DNA of 34,215 bases from an uncultured archaeon (GTDB lineage Archaea; Aenigmatarchaeota; Aenigmatarchaeia; CG10238-14; SCSR01), in assembly GCA_964514495.1 (NCBI GenBank), contig CAZERL010000002.1, positions 1 to 34,215 of the forward strand. Reading direction: 5' to 3'. The position numbers were made by a program, and so were the translations under genes. The notes beneath the pieces were generated by a model. The model was not told the DNA's origin and ran no database searches. It worked only from the letters and a program-made list of their open reading frames with translations. Positions 77-11,049 of the stretch are shown one piece after another (position 1 is the first letter of the stretch; every line of letters begins with the position of its first letter).

Positions 77-1255
77 ATGAATTTTATAGATAAAAAACAA
101 ATCCTAACCTCATTTCTCGCAGAAGGCTACCAGCTAGACGAGTCGGCACTGGACTTTTTAACCTCCCACACAGATCAGATTGTGGATGTCTTAGAAGGCC
201 TACAAAAACTACTTAAGAAACCAGCCATTTTAACCGATAAACATATTAAAACACTTCTAAACCCCCAAACCCCGATAACACTAAAAACACCCCAGCACGT
301 CTCAAAACCCCTCACACCAAACACAATACTCAGTCTCCTAAGCAACCGCTATAATTTTTTGAAAAGCGTCCTGCAGAACAGACTTGAATTAACAAACCTG
401 ACATCAATAAATAAAATAGGCGGCTCTAAACAATTCTCATTGATAGCGCTACTCCGGGAGGTTGATTATGTTGATAAAAACATAATCGCAGAAGACAAGA
501 CCGGTTCCATAAAACTATTTTTCGATGACCAAAGCACAGCACAACATCTTGTCTCAGAAGAAACGGTCGGACTCTTATGTATGCAGGAAGAGGGCCGAAT
601 TAAAATACAGAGAGTCGTCCACCCAGACATTCCCATTAAGAGGGAGATAATACGATCAAAAACAAAGACAACGTGTGTATTCTTTCCCGCACAAACTTTA
701 AACGAATTGAGAACCCACCCAAAGCATTATGCAAAATATGAAATGTGGTGTAAAGACAACAATTCCGACAATACGGTTGTTTTTGTCTTGGGAGGTATAC
801 CAAATCCCGACGTTTTAGGCACACTACCGAAACAAAGTACAAAGATAGTGCTTGTTAATGAAACGCCCCAAGGAAGCGATGATGATTCTGAACTGATAAT
901 TATGGTAGAGCCGGCATTGGTGAAAATCGGCGGTGTGACACTATTTTTATCAACAGGCGATTTTCTCAAAGATTATATAACTGCCATGAAAACAAACGCA
1001 GAAGAGGCACTGGTCAATTTACTTAAGAAACGGCACTTGAACCCAACATTTAATATACAGCAACCAATCTATTCAAACGACCCCTATCTGCTGGATATCA
1101 TACCGGATGTGATTGTTGTCGGTTCATCAGGAACACCGCAAGCCATAAACTACAAAGGGGTAACTATAGTTACAACCGGCAGCCCCGCCTCACAACCCAT
1201 AGTTTGGAGTACCGACCTCCAGACACGAGAAACTATTAAAATTGACTTTACATAA
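77..1255 (+). CDS. DNA polymerase B-subunit / PolD small subunit (DP1)-like protein with degenerate phosphoesterase motifs
   Basis: 392-aa ORF with an N-terminal helical segment, a Pro/Thr-rich linker and an OB-fold-like block (SLIALLREVDYVDKNIIAEDKTGSIKLFFDD...RIKIQRVVHPDIP) that resembles the DP1 OB domain ending in PDxP. C-terminal LLKKRHLNPTF and PDVIVVGSSG resemble DP1 LLxxRHLAP and PDxxxxGHxH, but the His ligands are replaced. The expected DxH, GDxxDG and GNHD positions read VFFPAQT, LGGIPNP and VNETP. The stop codon is 6 nt before the polB start. Confidence 0.65.
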   Translation: MNFIDKKQILTSFLAEGYQLDESALDFLTSHTDQIVDVLEGLQKLLKKPAILTDKHIKTLLNPQTPITLKTPQHVSKPLTPNTILSLLSNRYNFLKSVLQNRLELTNLTSINKIGGSKQFSLIALLREVDYVDKNIIAEDKTGSIKLFFDDQSTAQHLVSEETVGLLCMQEEGRIKIQRVVHPDIPIKREIIRSKTKTTCVFFPAQTLNELRTHPKHYAKYEMWCKDNNSDNTVVFVLGGIPNPDVLGTLPKQSTKIVLVNETPQGSDDDSELIIMVEPALVKIGGVTLFLSTGDFLKDYITAMKTNAEEALVNLLKKRHLNPTFNIQQPIYSNDPYLLDIIPDVIVVGSSGTPQAINYKGVTIVTTGSPASQPIVWSTDLQTRETIKIDFT

Positions 1256-1261
1256 GGTAAT

Positions 1262-3949
1262 GTGATGAAGGCAAACTTCCAGTTGATTGATTGTGATTAT
1301 GTTGTAGTGGACAACACACCGATAGTTAGGGTTTTCGGTAAAACCGAAGCGGGCAAAAGCATATGCACCTTCTATGAGGGCTACAACCCATATTTCTATA
1401 TTGTTCCAAAAGACAAAGACAGCATAACAAAACATTTGAATAAAGAATTCAAGCAGCTGGTCACTGACATTGCCGAAACAGAACGACTTCTCCCAATAGG
1501 ATTTACAACAAATAAAACCAAACTACTAAAGATTACAGCAACCGACCCGTCCCAAGTGCCTTTGATTAGAGACAGTTTGCTAACCCACGGGCTAGTTAAC
1601 AATGTATACGAAGCCGACATACTTTTCAAAAACAGATTCATGGCGGATATGGGATTAAACGGTATGGACTGGTATGAGGTCACAGGAGATAGCATTGGCA
1701 CGAACACCGTAAAAACAGAAGTTTTAATCAAGGCCAAAGAATTTAAAAAAATCCACGCGAAAAAGAACATGGAATTTCAATATATGTGCATTGACATCGA
1801 GATAGGTATGGCAGTTGAAGGCATACCAAACGCAACAAAAGACCCCATATCAATGATAAGCTTGTCATTTTATCCAGAGTTCCGCGATAAAAAATCACTC
1901 GTGCTTGTATCAAAGCATGTAGAAAAAACTGGTGACGTCCTGTCATTCAAGGACGAAAAAAACATGCTAGAAGGATTCCTCAAAGTTTTGGATTCTTTCG
2001 ACCCGGATTTCATAACAGGGTATAACATAAACGGGTTTGACATGCCGTATATCCTAACTAGACTGAGCGAAAATAAATTACCAAGAGCTTTGGGCAGAGA
2101 TAAAAATAAACAGAGCATATCAAGAAAATTCGGAATAAAATCTCGGACATCCGTGGTTGGCAGGGTTGTGGTAGATGTATACGAGCTTGTTAAGGAGTCA
2201 ATAGGCAAAGGCATTCTACGATTAAAGCGATATGGTTTAGGCGATGTATCTAGAGAGCTACTTGGTATGGATAAGGTTGACATTTCTCACGGTGAAATTT
2301 CCAAACACTGGAATGGTACAAAGGAACAACTGGAAAAACTGATTAATTATGCGCGTGTCGATTCGGTTCTAGCACTAAAATTGTTGCTGGATAAAAACAT
2401 GGTTGACAAATTCATAGAATTATCCAAAGTATCGGGACTATTGCTTCAGGATGCACTGGATGGGGGAGAGGGCACTCGGGTGGAAAACATTTTGTTGCGT
2501 GAATTTAACAGGGAAGGATATGTCCTTCCAACCAAACCATCTACAAGCGAGATACTTAAACGCCGGCTGCAAAAAGAATCCAAGGGGCTCAAAGGAGCGT
2601 TGGTGCTAGACCCCAAAATAGGTCTCCAGACCAACTGTGTGGTATATCTAGATTTCAAAAGCATGTACCCCTCAATTTTCATCAGCTATAACATATGCCC
2701 GACAACATTGTGCATAGCAGATGTGGATGCTGAGACTGTAGAAACGCCGGATCACACGAAATTCGTTTCGACTAATGTAAGGGCGGGAATCATCCCCAGA
2801 ATAGTTAGGAAACTTATACAGGAAAGGGATGTTGTCAGGAGCCAAATGAAAGCCGAAAGCAACATAGCAATAAAAAGGATTTTAGATGCGAAGCAGCTAG
2901 CATTAAAATATGTAACAAACTCATTCTATGGCTATACTGGTTATGTCCTAGCCCGAGTTTACCTGCTGGAAATTGCGAATGCTATCACAAGTTGCGGTAG
3001 GTATCTGATACAAGTGACTAAAAACACGGCGGAAATGGGCAACGAGTATACTGTAATTTACGGCGATACAGATTCTATCATGGTTGATACAAAAGTTTCT
3101 GATACAGATAAGGCAATGGAAATCGGTAAAAAAATCGAGATTGAAATAAACAACAGACTGAAAGGTATTGTTGAAGTAAAGATTGAAAATATTTTCAAGT
3201 CTCTACTGATCCTCGCAAAGAAAAGGTACGCCGGTATATCAATCGAGCAGAGTAATGGAGAAGTCAAAGAATCAATTGTCATGAAAGGTATTGAAACTGT
3301 TAGGAGGGATTGGTGCGATCTTACCAGTGAAACTTTGTTCAGTGCTTTGGAAATAATCTTGAAAGAACAAAGCCCTAAGAAAGCTGTGGAGTATGTCAAA
3401 GGAATTTTGAGCAAGCTTGAAAGAAACGAGATTCCTATAGAAAAATTGGTTATAACCAAAAGCATTTCAAAGCCGCTCAGGGATTACAAAGGAGTGCAAC
3501 CTCATATCGAAGTTGTAAAAAAAATTAGAAAAAGGAACCCAACAGAAGCACCCGGCATAGGAGATAGAGTTGGGTTCGTGATAATACATGGGCCGCAGTT
3601 AATGTCCGAAAGGGCAGAAGATCCTAATTATGTGGAGCAACATGGGTTAAAGATAGATTCCAAATACTACATAGAAAGCCAAATCCTACCTCCACTCGAA
3701 CGAGTTTTTGATGCTATAGGCATCACTAAAAGTGAAGTTATCGGCATAGGAAAACAACTCATGCTATTTGACGCCTTTAAAAATAAAAACCCCAAACCAG
3801 TATCGGCTACACTACCATCTGCAGAAGGTTTTATTTGCAAAGACTGCAACCAAAGCTACAGGCGCATACCACTTATAGGAAAATGCGATTCATGTAACGG
3901 GGAAATACTATTTTACTATGCGGGTCAGAAGGGGACTTCTTTAGGATAA
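1262..3949 (+). CDS. polB: Family-B DNA polymerase (archaeal PolB) with C-terminal Cys4 extension
   Basis: Exo I FQYMCIDIE, Exo II YNINGFDMPY and Exo III YARVDSVLA are present. So are motif A LDFKSMYPSI, motif B KYVTNSFYGYTGY and motif C VIYGDTDS. All are contiguous, so there is no intein. The start is GTG 1262 or ATG 1265. There is a PIP-like QLMLFDAF at aa 832-839, then about 56 more residues including CKDC-x12-CDSC. Confidence 0.95.
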   Translation: MMKANFQLIDCDYVVVDNTPIVRVFGKTEAGKSICTFYEGYNPYFYIVPKDKDSITKHLNKEFKQLVTDIAETERLLPIGFTTNKTKLLKITATDPSQVPLIRDSLLTHGLVNNVYEADILFKNRFMADMGLNGMDWYEVTGDSIGTNTVKTEVLIKAKEFKKIHAKKNMEFQYMCIDIEIGMAVEGIPNATKDPISMISLSFYPEFRDKKSLVLVSKHVEKTGDVLSFKDEKNMLEGFLKVLDSFDPDFITGYNINGFDMPYILTRLSENKLPRALGRDKNKQSISRKFGIKSRTSVVGRVVVDVYELVKESIGKGILRLKRYGLGDVSRELLGMDKVDISHGEISKHWNGTKEQLEKLINYARVDSVLALKLLLDKNMVDKFIELSKVSGLLLQDALDGGEGTRVENILLREFNREGYVLPTKPSTSEILKRRLQKESKGLKGALVLDPKIGLQTNCVVYLDFKSMYPSIFISYNICPTTLCIADVDAETVETPDHTKFVSTNVRAGIIPRIVRKLIQERDVVRSQMKAESNIAIKRILDAKQLALKYVTNSFYGYTGYVLARVYLLEIANAITSCGRYLIQVTKNTAEMGNEYTVIYGDTDSIMVDTKVSDTDKAMEIGKKIEIEINNRLKGIVEVKIENIFKSLLILAKKRYAGISIEQSNGEVKESIVMKGIETVRRDWCDLTSETLFSALEIILKEQSPKKAVEYVKGILSKLERNEIPIEKLVITKSISKPLRDYKGVQPHIEVVKKIRKRNPTEAPGIGDRVGFVIIHGPQLMSERAEDPNYVEQHGLKIDSKYYIESQILPPLERVFDAIGITKSEVIGIGKQLMLFDAFKNKNPKPVSATLPSAEGFICKDCNQSYRRIPLIGKCDSCNGEILFYYAGQKGTSLG

Positions 3950-5605
3950 TTGTTTGACTTTTTCTAAAATCGAAGTATAAGCAGGCCTAGTTATTGAAAT
4001 TGCTATCAAAACCCCGATTATCGTAGTTATAGCGAAACCCTTTAGTGCGCCAACACCGGCAATCACCAGAGGTAGCATTGCAGCTATGACTATGGAAGCC
4101 GAGTTAAAAATAATCGCCATCGCCGCCTTATGACGCTGTCTGACAGTGGTTTCCTTTTCCTGCAACATTTGATCTGTTATGATAATCAATTGGTTAACAC
4201 CAGTCCCTATGATTGCAATTAACCCAGCTATTGCAGGCACATCCAATACCCATCCAGCGCCTTTAGTTGCTGACTGAGTAAAGGCGGCAAACCCCAGAAT
4301 TAATAAAATTTCGCTAAAGCTGATTATCAGCATCGGCACAACAATTTTAAAGTCACGGTACCTGAACAAAATCACAATGCTTACTATAATCGCCGCAGCT
4401 ATAACAACATATATTGTAGAACTTAACAAAGCCCTTCCAGCGGTTTGCGTCACTACGTCAGTCTTGATAATTTCCAATTCTACTGGCAGACTTCCTGATT
4501 TCAGGACAGACTGCAACTGCAGGCGCTCATTCAGAGCAGCCTCACGTGTTTCTCTGAATCCCTGAAGTGTAGGTTTTGTTAAAGATTGCCCAGCCAAACT
4601 GGCCACGATGTTAAGTGATGTCACCTGATCCTCATCCAAAAATAAAACAAGCACGGGGTCCAAGTACCTTTCACTCCCACCAAGTCTTATCGGCTGATTC
4701 CTAGTTAACTTTGCAAATCTCTCAGCACTTTCTTGGCTTGTTTGTATAGCAAAAGAGAACTCATACCCATTTCCCACAGGCGCAAGATAGCTATTTTGCG
4801 GATCGGTAAAAACAGCCACGATGTCTTTCCCAGTGAAAACAGTACTCAAGATTCCAATCGTTTCATTCGTCACGTTTTTTATCTCTACAGTTATACCATC
4901 CTTAGTAAAGAGTTCCCCGAACTTATGTTGCTCGTTATCGAAAATTACTCCATCTTTAGATAATCCAATAGAGATTGATTTGCCTGCGAACGTTAAACTT
5001 CCCACAGCGTCTTTTAATTTAACAGTCTGTTCCAATTTACCTTCAAATTTACCTTGACGCGATAAGAAATTGACTATTTCTTCACTTGTCGCTCCCCCCA
5101 TCTCAATTTGAATTAGATTCTCGCCTATGGTGTATATTCTCAAGTCACGTAAGCCGTACAAGTTTATTCTGGTAGTTAGTACAGAAATCGTATCGTCTAT
5201 CAGACTTTTCGTAATAGTTCTTTTCGGTTTTAACAGTACTCTGGAACCCCCCTGTATGTCTATACCAAACACTAAATTCTCTTTTTTAACACCAGCTACT
5301 GTAAATCCTATGTTTCCGTCTTCCAATGCTACGCAATTAGCTGGCAATCCATCAGCTATTAAAGAAACAAATTCATCCCCCTTTATGTTAAGTACAGACT
5401 TATGGAAGTCGTCTAAATTTTTGATTTGTGTTGCCGACACCTGCGTGATTGCAAAATCTAATCTTATATTGTTGCATTTTGCGTTGCTAGCTATTTTAGC
5501 GACAACTACACCAACCCTGCCGGATAGCAACGGCGATATGATAAAATATAATGAAACCCCAAGCAATACCGCTAGAACCAATAAACGAACATCCTTTAAT
5601 ATCAT
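3941..5605 (-). CDS. secD: Protein-export membrane protein SecD
   Basis: 554 aa with an N-terminal TM helix, a large extracytoplasmic domain and a C-terminal multi-TM block containing GLIAIIGTGVNQLIIITDQ (SecD/F-type motif). The start overlaps the secF stop by 4 nt. The 3' end overlaps the polB 3' end by 9 nt. Confidence 0.8.
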   Translation of the reverse strand: MILKDVRLLVLAVLLGVSLYFIISPLLSGRVGVVVAKIASNAKCNNIRLDFAITQVSATQIKNLDDFHKSVLNIKGDEFVSLIADGLPANCVALEDGNIGFTVAGVKKENLVFGIDIQGGSRVLLKPKRTITKSLIDDTISVLTTRINLYGLRDLRIYTIGENLIQIEMGGATSEEIVNFLSRQGKFEGKLEQTVKLKDAVGSLTFAGKSISIGLSKDGVIFDNEQHKFGELFTKDGITVEIKNVTNETIGILSTVFTGKDIVAVFTDPQNSYLAPVGNGYEFSFAIQTSQESAERFAKLTRNQPIRLGGSERYLDPVLVLFLDEDQVTSLNIVASLAGQSLTKPTLQGFRETREAALNERLQLQSVLKSGSLPVELEIIKTDVVTQTAGRALLSSTIYVVIAAAIIVSIVILFRYRDFKIVVPMLIISFSEILLILGFAAFTQSATKGAGWVLDVPAIAGLIAIIGTGVNQLIIITDQMLQEKETTVRQRHKAAMAIIFNSASIVIAAMLPLVIAGVGALKGFAITTIIGVLIAISITRPAYTSILEKVKQLS

Positions 5606-6447
5606 GTGTGGTGCCTTCTTCTAACCCACCATTCCAATAAAGAAGAATTTAGGATCCAAGTATACGGTAAATCAAAAATAAAACCTATGACAAGTATCTG
5701 CGACACATTAACCAGCAATTTAGACGGCGATAATAATAGAACAATTAACATCGTCAATGTTATGGTCGATATCAATGTCAATCCGGTTGATAAAGCTCTT
5801 CTGTATTGTTTTCTGAAATTTTCCGGAGTCGTCTTCAAAACTTGGTTCGTCAAAACGATATTTGTGTCTACAGTGTATGCAATCAGCATTAGCAAGGCAG
5901 CAAATCCCGCAAAACTTATTTTAATCCCCAATAGACTGGTTATCGCTAAAGCGGTCAAGATATTTGCCAAGCTCGCAAAAACAATACCAAAACTAGTTAT
6001 CAGGTTTCTATAGATTATAAAAATTACAATGCTCATAAGGACAAATCCAATAGAAAGAATGGATACAACTTGTTCGAAAAATAAATTTCCTAGAAATGAA
6101 CCAATGCTTTCGGACGAAAACGAATTTACAGCAACGCCTAGGTTCTTCAGGTCGCTTATCACGCCATTTACACCAACATCCTTATCAACCTGTATTTCAA
6201 TTCCATACCCTCTGATACTTTGCACGTTTGATACAAACGCCGAACCATATTTTGCAGCCAGCGCTTGTTCTATTTTAGAAGTATCAAAGGGTGCTGGTGT
6301 CGCGATGTTGATTAATGTCCCCCCTTTCAGGTCGATATCACGTAAGATGAAATCGCCGGTTCTGATAAAATTCGATAACAAAATCGCTAACGATAGTAGG
6401 AAGATCAATATAGGTAACAAAACCAACTTTGGAAAGCGCCCAGACAT
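5602..6447 (-). CDS. secF: Protein-export membrane protein SecF
   Basis: 281 aa with an N-terminal TM, a small extracytoplasmic domain and a multi-TM C-terminus containing LLMLIAYTVDTNIVLTNQV (SecF-type motif). It is translationally coupled to secD. Confidence 0.8.
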   Translation of the reverse strand: MSGRFPKLVLLPILIFLLSLAILLSNFIRTGDFILRDIDLKGGTLINIATPAPFDTSKIEQALAAKYGSAFVSNVQSIRGYGIEIQVDKDVGVNGVISDLKNLGVAVNSFSSESIGSFLGNLFFEQVVSILSIGFVLMSIVIFIIYRNLITSFGIVFASLANILTALAITSLLGIKISFAGFAALLMLIAYTVDTNIVLTNQVLKTTPENFRKQYRRALSTGLTLISTITLTMLIVLLLSPSKLLVNVSQILVIGFIFDLPYTWILNSSLLEWWVRRRHHT

Positions 6448-6463
6448 AAGAACTTTCTATAAT

Positions 6464-6853
6464 CTAGATTTTTAATACTATAAAATAAGCGCCTGCCACA
6501 ATCAGCAATATACCCATCATTTTTACCAGTGTCAAACTTTCGTTGAAAAATATCTTAGCCAATATTGCTGTAAAAACATAACCTAGTGAAATCAATGGAT
6601 ATGCGAAACTTAACTCCTCTCTTGACAACACCACCAACCAAAGTCCAGAAGCTATGAAATATAGCATAAGCCCAAAAATTACAAATTTTTCTGTTATAAC
6701 CGAAAATATCCGAGAAGTTAATAAATCATTTACGCTTAGCGTTCCGATATTTGTCATCCCGCGTTTCAGGGAGAGCTGGGCAAATACTGCTAGTACAACA
6801 CTAGCTAAAATCAACACTAGTACAGACATTTTACCAATCCTTAGGTTAGCCAT
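6464..6853 (-). CDS. Small 4-TM EamA/SMR-like membrane protein, candidate lipid-linked-sugar flippase subunit (ArnE/ArnF-like)
   Basis: 129 aa with four hydrophobic helices. Size and topology resemble single-EamA-domain ArnE/ArnF-type proteins. It sits between the RHH-nucleotidyltransferase gene and secF on the same strand. Confidence 0.5.
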   Translation of the reverse strand: MANLRIGKMSVLVLILASVVLAVFAQLSLKRGMTNIGTLSVNDLLTSRIFSVITEKFVIFGLMLYFIASGLWLVVLSREELSFAYPLISLGYVFTAILAKIFFNESLTLVKMMGILLIVAGAYFIVLKI

Positions 6854-6877
6854 AGATAGTTATTTACTAACCTCAAT

Positions 6878-7708
6878 TTATAACTTTAAAATATCGTTAA
6901 TCCTTTTAATATCGTTTGCGGTATGTACATTAACCCACTTGCCAGCTATAGGGTAACCAACTAATTTACCATCTCTTGCCAATTTCGGGAATATATGTTC
7001 CTGCAGACTCCAATACACTTCGCCTGGAGGAATATAATTTAGAATCTCACCGCTCATGAATCCTATAAATACTGAAATCAAATGTGTTTTAGGCTTTTTC
7101 GGGAATTCATCATACTCAATTACTTTGTAACCCTTTAGAACTACGACGCTTGTATTCCATTCGAAACTTGTTCTTGCGTGAATTCCAAGTGTTGCAATAC
7201 CTCCATTCATCTGATGGAAATCATATAATTCCTTTATATCAAAATCGAACCAGTGATCACATGGAAGGAAAAGAAAATCTCCCTTCAAATATTGTCTCGC
7301 CAACTCCAATGTCTTTGCGGTTCCTAATTCTTTCGTTTCTTGTATGTAATTAATTGAGACGCCAAGTTTCTCGCCATTACCAATGACTTCGTAAAGTTTT
7401 GCAATCAAAGACGGGAATCCAACAATAATAATATTTGTAAAACCAACCTCCCGCGCCTTCGAAATAATATCTTCAATTAAAGTTTTTTTGCCGATGGAAA
7501 CTAAAGGTCTATAGGTTCCAAGTTCCTTAACATAAAGCTTTGAAGGATCACCACCAGCAAGAATCACGGCAGTCCTTTTCTCAACGAGTTGTTGTGACAA
7601 TAGTTTTTCTATCGCATCGGTCCTTGACCTGATTTTAATGCCATCAACTAACGAATCCACCTTTCGTAATATTTTTTCATCCAAGCTTAGCGATACACGT
7701 TTTTTCAT
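6878..7708 (-). CDS. Ribbon-helix-helix (CopG-like) domain fused to a sugar-phosphate nucleotidyltransferase-like domain
   Basis: The N-terminus KKRVSLSLDEKILRKVDSLVDGIKIRSRTDAIEKLL fits an RHH beta-strand plus two helices. The rest matches the NTP_transferase fold (AVILAGG..., ELGTAKTLELA, FLFLPCDH, GKWVNVHTANDI). The G-loop reads GGDPSKL instead of the canonical GGxGTRL. Confidence 0.6.
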   Translation of the reverse strand: MKKRVSLSLDEKILRKVDSLVDGIKIRSRTDAIEKLLSQQLVEKRTAVILAGGDPSKLYVKELGTYRPLVSIGKKTLIEDIISKAREVGFTNIIIVGFPSLIAKLYEVIGNGEKLGVSINYIQETKELGTAKTLELARQYLKGDFLFLPCDHWFDFDIKELYDFHQMNGGIATLGIHARTSFEWNTSVVVLKGYKVIEYDEFPKKPKTHLISVFIGFMSGEILNYIPPGEVYWSLQEHIFPKLARDGKLVGYPIAGKWVNVHTANDIKRINDILKL

Positions 7709-7713
7709 AACTG

Positions 7714-7742
7714 TAATACTTGAGTATTAAATATTAATACTT
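7714..7742. promoter_or_regulatory. Palindrome plus direct repeat in a divergent promoter region (candidate operator)
   Basis: TAATACT-TG-AGTATTA is a perfect 7-2-7 inverted repeat at 7714-7729. The half-site TAATACTT recurs at 7735-7742, 21 nt after its first copy. It lies 6 nt upstream of the RHH-fusion start codon and about 50 nt upstream of ugd. Confidence 0.35.
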
Positions 7743-7790
7743 TAGTTATTCTTTTAAACATAGAATTTTTATTATATTCAAGGTAATTCC

Positions 7791-9095
7791 ATGAAGATAG
7801 GAGTCATAGGCGTAGGATATGTTGGCCTCACTTTAGCTTGCCTCGCGGAGTTCGGGAATAATGTATTGTTTGTAGGTCGTTCTGCTGATAAGATAAATAA
7901 TCTGAAGAAAGGCATTTTGCCTGTTTATGAAAAAGGTTTGAGTGAAATTGTAAAAAGAAACCTAGAAGCTCAGAGAATCGATGCCACAACAGATTACGAA
8001 AAGATGAAAGAAACTGAAATAATTTTCATTTGTGTAGGTACCCCTTCGGCCGAAGGTGGGGCTATAGATATTTCCCAAATAAAAACTGTCTCGGAAAGGC
8101 TAGGTATATTGCTGAAGAATACGGGCGAGCATAAGACTATAGTTGTAAAAAGTACTGTGGTACCAGGAACTACTAAAGACGTTGTAATTCCTATTTTGGA
8201 AAAGTATTCTGGAAAGAAGGCCGGAGGCGATTTTAGTGTATGTATGAATCCAGAATTCTTAAGAGAGGGTGACGGAGTATACGATTTTTTACATCCTGAT
8301 AAGGTTGTTATTGGCGGGTATGATGAAAAATCAAGTTACAAGGTGATAAAATTGTACAGTTTCTATGATAGCAAAATTCCTAGGATAGTAACTAATCTGA
8401 ATACTGCTGAAATGGTAAAATATGCTCAAAATGCGGCATTGGCAACCCGCATATCATTTATCAATGAAATAGCAAACATCTGTGAGAAATTCGAGGTGGA
8501 TGCATATGAAGTTTCTCACGCAATAGGCTTGGATTCTAGAATCGGACCTAAATTTTTGAACGCAGGCCCCGGTTTTGGTGGAAGCTGCTTCCCAAAAGAT
8601 GTCAAAGCTCTGGTATCCATAGCAAAAACATTTGATGTAAACTCGATTTTATTGGACGCTGTTTTAACTGTAAATAAAACTCAACCGCATAGGATGGTTG
8701 GTATCGCTAAAAGTACTTTAGGGAGTCTTAATGGCAAAAAAATTGCAGTCCTTGGCCTGGCATTTAAAGCAGATACAGATGATATACGAGAAGCCAGTTC
8801 AATTCCCATAATAAATTCGCTTTTAAAGGAAAATGCTATAATTAAGGTTTACGACCCACAAGCCATGGAAAATTCCAAGAAAATCTTCGGCAAGTCTGTC
8901 GGATACTGTACTTCAAAAGAAGATTGTATCAAGGATGCAGATTTATGTATGATCATTACAGAATGGGATGAATTTAGAAAATTAGATTTGTCTGCAATAA
9001 AGTGCCCTATAATTGATGGAAGGAGAGTCTTAGATCCAATTAAAGCAGAACAATATGGTCTAGTTTACAAAGGGATAGGGTGGAAAAATAATTAA
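7791..9095 (+). CDS. ugd: UDP-glucose 6-dehydrogenase
   Basis: 434 aa with an N-terminal Rossmann MKIGVIGVGYVG, the catalytic-Cys motif GFGGSCFPKD and a C-terminal UDP-binding domain (LGLAFKADTDDIREA). Confidence 0.9.
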   Translation: MKIGVIGVGYVGLTLACLAEFGNNVLFVGRSADKINNLKKGILPVYEKGLSEIVKRNLEAQRIDATTDYEKMKETEIIFICVGTPSAEGGAIDISQIKTVSERLGILLKNTGEHKTIVVKSTVVPGTTKDVVIPILEKYSGKKAGGDFSVCMNPEFLREGDGVYDFLHPDKVVIGGYDEKSSYKVIKLYSFYDSKIPRIVTNLNTAEMVKYAQNAALATRISFINEIANICEKFEVDAYEVSHAIGLDSRIGPKFLNAGPGFGGSCFPKDVKALVSIAKTFDVNSILLDAVLTVNKTQPHRMVGIAKSTLGSLNGKKIAVLGLAFKADTDDIREASSIPIINSLLKENAIIKVYDPQAMENSKKIFGKSVGYCTSKEDCIKDADLCMIITEWDEFRKLDLSAIKCPIIDGRRVLDPIKAEQYGLVYKGIGWKNN

Positions 9096-10025
9096 GTGGT
9101 TATTATGGTTAACATAGCGGTAATTGCGGCTGCAGGTAAAGGGACCAGATTAATTCCAGCAACAAAAGAACAGCCAAAGGAGATGCTACCTATAATATCT
9201 CAAGGTTTGATAAAACCTGTTTTGCATCTTATAGTAGAGCAACTATATGCATCCGGCATAAGTAAACTGTTCGTTATTACTGGGAGAGATAAGCGAGCGG
9301 TTGTAGACCACTTTACCCAAAATTATGAATTGATGGATGGACTATCAAATAAGTCAGATATAAAAATTATGTTGCAAGAGTTCTATGACATTCTAAACAA
9401 AATCAATATATCATACATAAACCAACCAAGGCCAGAAGGATTTGGAGCTGCAGTCCAACTCGCAGAAAATTATATCAGCAGTTCCGACAGTTTCCTTTTA
9501 ACGTCAGGAGACTCTATTGTCTTTTCTTTGAAAGACGGCCATTCAACAGATTTCATTAAAAGACTAACCGAAACTCATAAGAAGCATGATGCAGATGCTA
9601 CTCTCGCATTTTTCAAAACCAAAGATGTTTCAAAATATGGTGTTATCGTTGGAGAAGAAAGCGATGAGATCATTAACGTGAGCAAAGTAGTCGAAAAACC
9701 AAAAGAACCAATATCCAATTTGGCTATAGTTGGAAAGTATGTATTCAAACCTGTTATATTCCACGCGCTTAAAAAAATTGGTTTTGGTGTTGGGCAAGAA
9801 AAACAATTGACTGATGCAATCCAATGGCTTGTGGAAAAAGGCTTCAAAGTTGTTGCCATCCCTTTGAAGGAAGACGAGGTGTATTTGGATATAGGCAATC
9901 CACAAACTTACATAGAAGCATTGATAACAACTGCACTATTCGATCCTTCACTGAACCCTATAACAGTCCAGAAATTTAATGAGTTGGCCACTTTTTATAA
10001 AAAATCTGGTGGAAATAGTGATTGA
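9096..10025 (+). CDS. galU: UTP--glucose-1-phosphate uridylyltransferase
   Basis: AVIAAAGKGTRLIPATKEQPKEMLPI matches the GalU-type signature (AGxGTRxLPATKxxPKEMLP). The start is GTG 9096 directly after the ugd stop, or ATG 9105. Confidence 0.85.
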   Translation: MVIMVNIAVIAAAGKGTRLIPATKEQPKEMLPIISQGLIKPVLHLIVEQLYASGISKLFVITGRDKRAVVDHFTQNYELMDGLSNKSDIKIMLQEFYDILNKINISYINQPRPEGFGAAVQLAENYISSSDSFLLTSGDSIVFSLKDGHSTDFIKRLTETHKKHDADATLAFFKTKDVSKYGVIVGEESDEIINVSKVVEKPKEPISNLAIVGKYVFKPVIFHALKKIGFGVGQEKQLTDAIQWLVEKGFKVVAIPLKEDEVYLDIGNPQTYIEALITTALFDPSLNPITVQKFNELATFYKKSGGNSD

Positions 10026-11049
10026 AAAGATAATTTCAGAAGATATACAAAAAGTCCAAAGTAATGCAAAGGAATTAAAAGAAGTAGTTGATGGTAAAAC
10101 TGTTTTGGTTACAGGTGGGGCTGGGTTTATAGGATCTTGGGTATGTGATGTGTTTGTTGGATTCAACGCCAATGTAATTTGTGTTGATAATTTGAGTTCA
10201 GGTATTACCACTAATATGGATCATTTGCTGAAACACAAGAATTTTAAATTCATAAATGAAGATGTTTGCAAATTCGACACAGATGATAAACTGGACTACA
10301 TTGTACATATGGCAAGCGTAGCATCACCTTTATCATATCTATCGCTCCCTATCGAAACATTAGACGCTAATGTAATTGGCACAAAGAGGATGCTGGAATT
10401 GGCCAAGAGAAATAATGTTAAAAGTTTTCTATTTACCGGAACCAGCGAAACGTATGGGAATCCCGATGACACAAATTTACCAACACCAGAAACGTACTAC
10501 GGTTATGTAAATTCATTTGGTCCGCGAGCTGTTTATGATGAAGGTAAAAGATGCGCAGAAGCATACTGCTATGCTTATTTAAATAAATTTAATTTGCCCA
10601 TAAGGATTGCACGTATTTTCAATACATATGGCCCACGCCTAGATATAAAATCTAAAACACAATACGGAAGAGTAATTGTGAAATTCGTTTTGCAAGCACT
10701 TGCAAATCAACCTTTGACTGTATACGGAGACGGAACACAAACAAGAAGCTTCTGTTATATTACAGACCAATTGGAAGGGTTGCTGAAACTCCTATTGCTA
10801 CCAAATCTGAAGGGAGAAGTAATCAATATCGGGAATACAAACGAGATAACAATACTTGAACTCGCTAATAAAATTGCGAAACTCACCAACACAAACTCCG
10901 GGATAGAATTCCAGCCATTGCCAAAAGACGATCCGAGAAGAAGGAACCCAGATATATCTAAAGCTAAAATGTTATTGGGGTTTTATCCAAAAATCGGTTT
11001 GAATGAAGGTCTTATGAGAACAATAGAGTGGTTTAAGTTCACAAAGTGA
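9979..11049 (+). CDS. uxs: UDP-glucuronate decarboxylase (UDP-xylose synthase)
   Basis: VLVTGGAGFIGS, TSETYGNP, FGPRAVYDEGKRCAE, RIARIFNTYGPR, YGRVIVKF and YGDGTQTRSFCYITD closely match UXS family blocks. The true start may be the in-frame GTG at 10018, which overlaps the upstream stop, rather than ATG 9979. Confidence 0.85.
   Translation: MSWPLFIKNLVEIVIEKIISEDIQKVQSNAKELKEVVDGKTVLVTGGAGFIGSWVCDVFVGFNANVICVDNLSSGITTNMDHLLKHKNFKFINEDVCKFDTDDKLDYIVHMASVASPLSYLSLPIETLDANVIGTKRMLELAKRNNVKSFLFTGTSETYGNPDDTNLPTPETYYGYVNSFGPRAVYDEGKRCAEAYCYAYLNKFNLPIRIARIFNTYGPRLDIKSKTQYGRVIVKFVLQALANQPLTVYGDGTQTRSFCYITDQLEGLLKLLLLPNLKGEVINIGNTNEITILELANKIAKLTNTNSGIEFQPLPKDDPRRRNPDISKAKMLLGFYPKIGLNEGLMRTIEWFKFTK

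Follow-up and report, generated by a model that had tools for sequence, protein, structure and literature searches.

Why does a family-B DNA polymerase (PolB) from an archaeon run on past its PCNA-interacting (PIP)-like box into a tail with four cysteines, and why does a gene for a protein resembling DP1, the small subunit of the archaeal polymerase PolD, lie directly upstream of it? Both questions are raised by a 34,215-nucleotide stretch of DNA from an uncultured member of the Aenigmatarchaeota (contig CAZERL010000002.1), which is called the window below. An initial annotation had pointed to the tail of this PolB as the candidate docking module for the DP1-like protein. We compared the tail, the polB gene and its neighbour with their relatives across the phylum. 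We consider it very likely that DP2, the large subunit of PolD, has been lost, that PolB is the sole replicative polymerase, and that a ribbon of the DP2 Zn-III type on its C-terminus docks a dead DP1-like subunit.

The PolB tail is related to Zn-III of DP2 as judged by profile matches

The body of the polB product matched Pfam DNA_pol_B (E = 4.9e-114) and DNA_pol_B_exo1 (E = 2.6e-37). In its translation, the exonuclease motifs DIE, NINGFD and YARVD and the polymerase motifs DFKSMYPS and YGDTDS were all present, and both sets are intact. The reading frame is unbroken through the tail, with the first stop at 3947, 17 residues after the last cysteine. A copy of the same protein in the databases begins at the ATG and has 894 residues (P0003). 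PolB contains 12 cysteines, eight of them scattered over the polymerase body and four within the last 37 residues. These four form the only cysteine cluster of the protein (CxxC-x12-CxxC), and the two modules, CysA and CysB, that characterize eukaryotic C-terminal domains (CTDs) were not found together in it.

Translation reproduced exactly the positions that the initial annotation had given for the QLMLFDAF box and for Cys859/862/875/878 in CKDC and CDSC (Table 1). The annotation had also described the tail as an extension past the usual end at the PIP box. This wording is literally correct, because the untailed PolBs of a sister family, f12, terminate at the same box (QKSLEGF, QTNLGSF or QKNLGDFR), and the position of the internal box in the window PolB is homologous to their terminal QxxLxxF.

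Next, the origin of the tail was examined. NCBIfam models of DP2 matched PolB residues 857-883 (E = 2.5e-5 and 3.4e-5) at model positions 1267-1293 of 1350 and 1041-1068 of 1125, which is the place of Zn-III. The protein as a whole cannot be called a DP2, since only positions ~1041-1069 of the 1125 in the DP2 model were matched and the remainder is PolB. When a profile of 60 tails was searched against all PDB sequences, it matched residues 1127-1159 of T. kodakarensis DP2 (6knb_B, E = 5e-10) and residues 1119-1151 of P. abyssi DP2 (6hms_B, E = 2.9e-8), and no match comparable to DP2 Zn-III was found elsewhere in the PDB. Furthermore, over a stretch of 32 residues the tail shares 56-63% identity with DP2 proteins of Woesearchaeota, Micrarchaeota, Altiarchaeota and Methanosarcinales, which show the same pattern, F-x-C-x-x-C-N-x-x-Y/F-R-R-x-P-L-x-G-K-C-x-x-C-G-G-x-I-L-F. 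Past Zn-III, DP2 continues with ~55 residues of helices and then a terminal PIP box of the KQxGLxxW/F type, both of which the window tail lacks. No Pfam model covers the tail; the Pfam search gave weak matches to unrelated zinc fingers only (ADK_lid and zf-AN1), which were not used. The initial description of the tail as zinc-ribbon-like is thus borne out and can be made narrower: by its NCBIfam and PDB profile matches, the tail is a specific homologue of DP2 Zn-III, and more than merely zinc-ribbon-like. Two candidate tailed PolBs (L060 and L069), whose matches extend upstream of the ribbon, proved to be ordinary DP2 genes of 1110-1150 residues and were rejected. A scan of viral contigs found no tailed PolB and gave no support for a mobile-element source.

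A search restricted to PolB residues 800-895 returned 132 PolBs of ~900 residues with the same tail, and the named ones came mostly from Candidatus Aenigmarchaeota or Aenigmatarchaeota. Conservation was counted over 121 aligned homologues, which share 40-64% identity with the window tail over the last 75 residues. C859, C862, C875, C878 and F884 are invariant in all 121, indicating that the cysteine pattern did not arise by chance, and the metal held by these cysteines is probably zinc. In the loop between the two cysteine pairs, R867 is kept in 102, R868 in 115 and P870 in 119 of the homologues; R868, P870, G873 and G880 are each conserved in at least 115. The PIP-like box is conserved as well, with Q832 kept in 113/121 and L or I at position 835 in 121/121. 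Compared with the canonical PIP motif, Qxx[LIM]xx[FY][FY], Q832 and L835 fit, whereas positions 7-8 are A-F (A-[IFL] in the family) and do not form an aromatic pair. This internal box may be the PCNA-binding site of PolB.

Two further observations concern the tailed PolBs at large. A few of them come from records whose labels read Candidatus Omnitrophica bacterium, uncultured bacterium or Candidatus Bathyarchaeota (P0020 = MCM8786112.1, L035 and L049); as these records are contigs of 4-8 kb, they are likely mis-binned Aenigmatarchaeota DNA. Others are longer by 350-500 residues (P0059, 1251 aa; P0079, 1332 aa; and P0072) and contain intein and LAGLIDADG domains of Pfam (PF14890 and PF14528), which indicates that inteins occur within this PolB family too. 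Open reading frames (ORFs) of 1300-1400 residues were also seen among the tailed PolBs in the scan of the phylum.

DP2 is absent and a DP1-like gene accompanies polB

The genome to which the window belongs (1.04 Mb, 95% complete) has one PolB, one DP1-like gene and one PCNA gene, the last on contig 56 of the assembly. DP2 was not found in this 95% complete genome, and the sole match to a DP2 model was the PolB tail itself.

We then scanned species-representative genomes with a 98-residue alignment of the tail and found tailed PolBs at 58 loci, the majority under Aenigmatarchaeota titles. Four of the 58 lie on contigs too short to give a view upstream, and synteny was judged on the remaining 54. 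Using a hidden Markov model of the DP1-like protein, we found a copy no more than 2.5 kb from the tailed polB in every one of these 54 loci. In 53 of them the DP1-like gene is upstream on the same strand, usually with its stop abutting or overlapping the start of polB. The exception, from a divergent lineage (L048), has PolB at 5679-8276 on the plus strand and the DP1-like gene ~1.5 kb downstream at 9802-10743 on the minus strand. In two loci (L032 and L058) a spacer of ~650-700 nt, rich in stop codons, separates the DP1-like gene from polB. Cys4 tails that are common without a DP1-like neighbour, a finding that the initial annotation had set against its own proposal, were therefore not seen among the informative loci. 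Instead, the alignment and co-occurrence check that it had suggested placed the Cys4 tail in 121 homologues and paired it with an adjacent DP1-like gene at 54/54 loci.

In the window, the distance from the stop of the DP1-like gene to the start of polB is 6 nt if the GTG is used and 9 nt if the ATG is used, both genes are in the same frame, and the purine-rich AAGGT overlaps the stop. The junction is equally tight or overlapping in most related loci. From this arrangement, the DP1-like gene and polB look like a coupled operon.

The phylum also provides its own control. In a DP2 survey of a sample of 301 genomes, full DP2 was confined to family f12, where it was present in 12/12 genomes. Outside f12, the DP2 model matched only at positions ~1041-1070, inside a PolB-sized ORF of ~900 residues. 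Five f12 genomes were examined in detail for DP1 and PolB. All five encode a canonical DP1, which reached the NCBIfam cut-off in four, and their PolBs are untailed proteins of 772-783 residues with 32% identity to the window PolB. Thus, where DP2 is present it is accompanied by an active-type DP1 and an untailed PolB, and where DP2 is absent there is a tailed PolB with an adjacent degenerate DP1.

Two DP2 matches in the window's own family, in G091 (C64:8-1867, L097), which is of the same genus, and in G169 (C78:2-721, L098), were rejected as probable binning contamination. They are fragments on contigs of 2-3 kb, with ~50% identity to DP2 of Methanosarcinales, Nanoarchaeota or Micrarchaeota compared with 37-43% to that of f12. 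Within f12, the match to the DP2 model breaks in two at position ~875 in several genomes (G005, G139, G016 and G208). In two of them (G005:C12:30102-34889 and G139:C34:3-4400) both pieces lie ~1.4 kb apart in one frame of ~1500-1600 residues, an arrangement that suggests an intein insertion in DP2.

The DP1-like protein has lost its metal ligands

The DP1-like ORF matched the NCBIfam model of the PolD small subunit (E = 3.4e-28) and Pfam DNA_pol_E_B (E = 2.3e-7), and in the PDB it matched DP1 (6hms_A, E = 1e-11) with its His ligands replaced. The active site was read by alignment with the five canonical f12 DP1s, which carry the motifs DxH, GDxxD, GNHD, H and GHxH. Among 55 Aenigmatarchaeota DP1-like proteins, the GNH histidine is lost in all 55, with the motif wholly deleted in most, and the loop following GD is usually deleted too. 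In about 11-19 of the 55, DxH and GHxH remain, together with the leading Asp of GD and the His of motif IV. None of the ten metal-ligand positions is preserved in the window protein, where all are substituted, or in L002, its nearest relative. The protein is fully ligand-free in the window genus, and sister lineages still hold a partial DxH/GD/H/GHxH set.

Other landmarks have been kept. The OB motif EDxTG is retained, with D140 and G143 present in 55/55 proteins, as are PDxP at the domain junction and the KR, PD and NYK motifs. The retention of these landmarks while the catalytic ligands were lost fits a protein kept for a structural role, and the substitutions at all ligand positions predict that the window protein is catalytically dead.

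Structure predictions

AlphaFold2 was run on PolB residues 700-895 with 118 homologues. The thumb was predicted with confidence, at a predicted local distance difference test (pLDDT) score of about 90. The linker region, residues 820-849, scored 50-64, with the PIP-like box forming a short helix within it, and residues 850-895 formed a four-stranded ribbon with a pLDDT of about 86. Because the DP1-like gene and polB share a frame, a read-through translation could also be modelled as a single chain of 1200 residues (window 347-3946, with the TAA read as Gly). Its alignment combined 21 equally read-through loci, in which the two proteins are naturally paired, with 52 PolB-only rows. In this fused model, the DP1-like part had a pLDDT of about 80-88 and PolB of about 90.

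How the tail may work

The findings above can be combined into the following scheme. An Aenigmatarchaeota genome would have lost DP2, leaving the family-B enzyme as its only replicative polymerase. A DP2 Zn-III ribbon would have been added behind the usual C-terminal PCNA-binding box of PolB, on a flexible linker of ~16 residues, so that the tether would also bear the PCNA-binding box. The YRRIP loop of the ribbon would dock the co-transcribed, catalytically dead DP1-like protein in the way that RRxP docks in the acidic OB/phosphoesterase groove of PolD. This would give a polymerase of two subunits on the plan of eukaryotic Pol alpha, delta and epsilon, in which a Cys-rich module at the C-terminus of PolB joins it to an inactive B-subunit, and proofreading would be left to the intact exonuclease of PolB itself.

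The Zn-III homology, the conservation of the tail, the absence of DP2, the conserved synteny and the decay of the DP1-like active site that enter this scheme were observed directly. The previous work on PolD revealed that the KxRRxP loop of Zn-III (R1131 and R1132) sits in the OB/PDE groove of DP1, and that a 20-residue Zn-III peptide binds DP1 with nanomolar affinity, as cited there (Raia et al. 2019, PMC6355029). Physical docking of the DP1-like protein on the window tail is something that we infer, or take from the literature on related proteins. The suggestion of the initial annotation that the tail is a candidate docking module for the upstream protein is supported by the Zn-III homology, the absence of DP2, the synteny at 54/54 loci and the published yeast two-hybrid (Y2H) results on related proteins.

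Several points weigh against this reading or limit it. The tail has no helical bundle, an element that contributes to the interface with DP1 in both DP2 and eukaryotic CTDs, and Feng et al. 2025 (PMC12680538) call the tail a degenerate DP2 CTD whose predicted structure differs. In the fused model the ribbon had a pLDDT of 58-75 compared with about 86 without DP1; this comparison, of pLDDT only, counts neither for nor against docking. The window DP1-like protein is more degenerate than those of most relatives. Finally, Zn-III in PolD also touches the DNA minor groove and the nascent duplex (PMC6355029), and docking is therefore possibly not the only role of the ribbon.

This last point can be taken further, to a ribbon that is mainly a DNA-binding or processivity element, with a DP1-like protein that acts independently of it. 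Zn-III makes contact with the nascent duplex in PolD, cited substitutions of Zn-III cysteines impair PolD activity (PMC6355029), and in the tail the basic loop, with R867, R868 and K874, is conserved. However, the clamp-1 helices that hold Zn-III to DNA in PolD are missing from the tail, and the ribbon is tethered past the thumb by a linker predicted with low confidence. Nor would such a role account for the published Y2H result, for the loss of DP2, or for a DP1-like gene that so strictly accompanies the tailed PolB. We regard it as unlikely to be the main function, and a DNA role and a docking role are compatible rather than mutually exclusive.

Conservation falls on the loop that docks DP1, and the constantly linked gene is the DP1-like one; both speak against recruitment of some other replisome partner, such as the primase large subunit (PriL), GINS or RPA. 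The CTD of eukaryotic Pol alpha, it is true, binds primase as well. A Heimdallarchaeial PriL interacts with a DP2 CTD in Y2H (Feng et al. 2025, PMC12680538), but the canonical archaeal primase showed no interaction with a PolB3 CTD (PMC12680538), and we find this possibility slightly less probable again than a DNA element. The lack of a Pfam model and the weak zinc-finger matches would suit a tail that is a generic neutral zinc ribbon, a chance cysteine pattern or an annotation artefact. This is already contradicted by the four cysteines invariant in 121 homologues, by the specific and significant match to DP2 Zn-III and by a frame that is open to 3947, and we give it hardly any credence.

The docking of a dead DP1-like subunit on the ribbon may be carried one step further, to a version that we put forward tentatively and would not yet favour. 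A 40-residue Zn-III ribbon without the bundle might suffice on its own as a minimal module for docking a B-subunit, with its partner at a ligand-free end state as in eukaryotic B-subunits; together with the internal PIP-like box it would make a two-part tether, for PCNA and for the B-subunit. If this is true, the tail would be the simplest natural model for the origin of the eukaryotic PolB/B-subunit architecture.

Layout of the locus

The coordinates of the two genes, their junction and the parts of the tail are collected in Table 1. The last 9 nt of polB (3941-3949) are shared with the 3' end of a convergent 554-residue ORF on the minus strand (3941-5605), which leaves no space for an intergenic terminator.

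Table 1. Positions in the window of polB, the DP1-like gene and the segments of the PolB tail
Feature	Positions (nt)	Strand	Remarks
DP1-like (B-subunit-like) gene, 392 aa	77-1255	+	OB fold and degenerate phosphoesterase domain
Junction of the two genes	1253-1267	+	TAA of the DP1-like gene, purine-rich AAGGT, candidate polB starts GTG (1262) and ATG (1265)
Family-B DNA polymerase, 895 aa	1262-3949	+	From translation; stop at 3947-3949
PIP-like box QLMLFDAF, aa 832-839	3755-3778	+	Family consensus QxxLx[DE]A[IFL]
Linker, aa 840-855, 16 aa	3779-3826	+	Variable, probably flexible: poor conservation, length variation, pLDDT ~50 in both models
C-terminal Cys4 ribbon, aa 856-895, 40 aa	3827-3946	+	Derived from DP2 Zn-III, as judged by homology
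CKDC-x12-CDSC, aa 859-878 (C859/C862/C875/C878)	3836-3895	+	Cysteine pairs at 3836-3847 and 3884-3895
YRRIP loop in the ribbon	3857-3871	+	Counterpart of the DP2 RRxP loop

Comparison with known systems

The arrangement of the tail and the proposal that it docks a B-subunit are already known, and our reading of the window is a rediscovery. Kazlauskas et al. 2020 (PMC7544198) described 'B6-aenigma1' PolBs of Aenigmarchaeota that carry one C-terminal metal-binding motif closest to Zn-III of DP2. They reported that DP2 is missing from most genomes of this phylum and that these PolBs go together with a clade of inactivated DP1, and they proposed that PolB has replaced DP2. The window PolB shares with B6-aenigma1 an active polymerase, a single Zn-III-like Cys4 motif, the absence of DP2, the retention of an inactivated DP1 and the phylum; it differs in nothing essential and, as judged by these features, is one more member. 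The exemplar published for the group (OIN85950) was not among the ten homologue clusters that were looked up. The main text of PMC7544198 makes no mention of an operon, of gene adjacency or of PCNA. Our modest additions to that text are the near-universal operon linkage, an internal PIP-like box that is conserved, and a loss of DP1 ligands that proceeds by degrees. Using AlphaFold3 and Y2H, Feng et al. 2025 (PMC12680538) found, in Aenigmatarchaeota as well as in Baldrarchaeia, binding of DP1 to PolBs that bear the CTD and not to PolBs without it. The literature has already acknowledged the significance of the system and put it partly to the test (2020, 2025), and the window adds a well-resolved example together with phylum-wide counts: operon linkage at 53/54 loci, invariant cysteines with a conserved RRxP loop, the f12 control and the stepwise decay of DP1.

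With Zn-III of DP2 itself (P. abyssi 6hms and 6t8h, T. kodakarensis 6knb) the tail has in common the CxxC-x12-CxxC spacing, the RRxP loop, the G-K-C motif and the beta hairpin. In DP2, however, the module stands on a two-barrel polymerase, whereas here it stands on a family-B enzyme whose DP1 partner is predicted to be catalytically dead, and the window tail lacks the flanking helices, the ~55-residue helical C-terminus and the terminal PIP box. The PolB3 of Baldrarchaeia with a full DP2 CTD (formerly 'B6-aenigma2') is likewise a chimera of PolB and the DP2 CTD in organisms that lack DP2 and keep DP1, and its interaction with DP1 was seen in Y2H (PMC12680538). This CTD exceeds the window tail in length, has a helical bundle and two metal-binding motifs, and is nearer to the eukaryotic form, whereas the window tail has a single motif and no bundle.

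In eukaryotes, Pol alpha, delta, epsilon and zeta resemble the window system in joining a PolB through a Cys-rich C-terminal module, whose CysB is the equivalent of Zn-III, to an inactive B-subunit derived from DP1. CysB of Pol delta and Pol zeta holds an Fe-S cluster. The eukaryotic CTDs differ by their helical bundle and by a second metal site, CysA, beside CysB; the window tail has no equivalent of CysA. The locus offers an archaeal parallel to the eukaryotic replicative polymerases, a PolB that would be joined via a Cys-rich module to an inactive B-subunit of DP1 descent, and this parallel bears on how the eukaryotic replicative polymerases arose.

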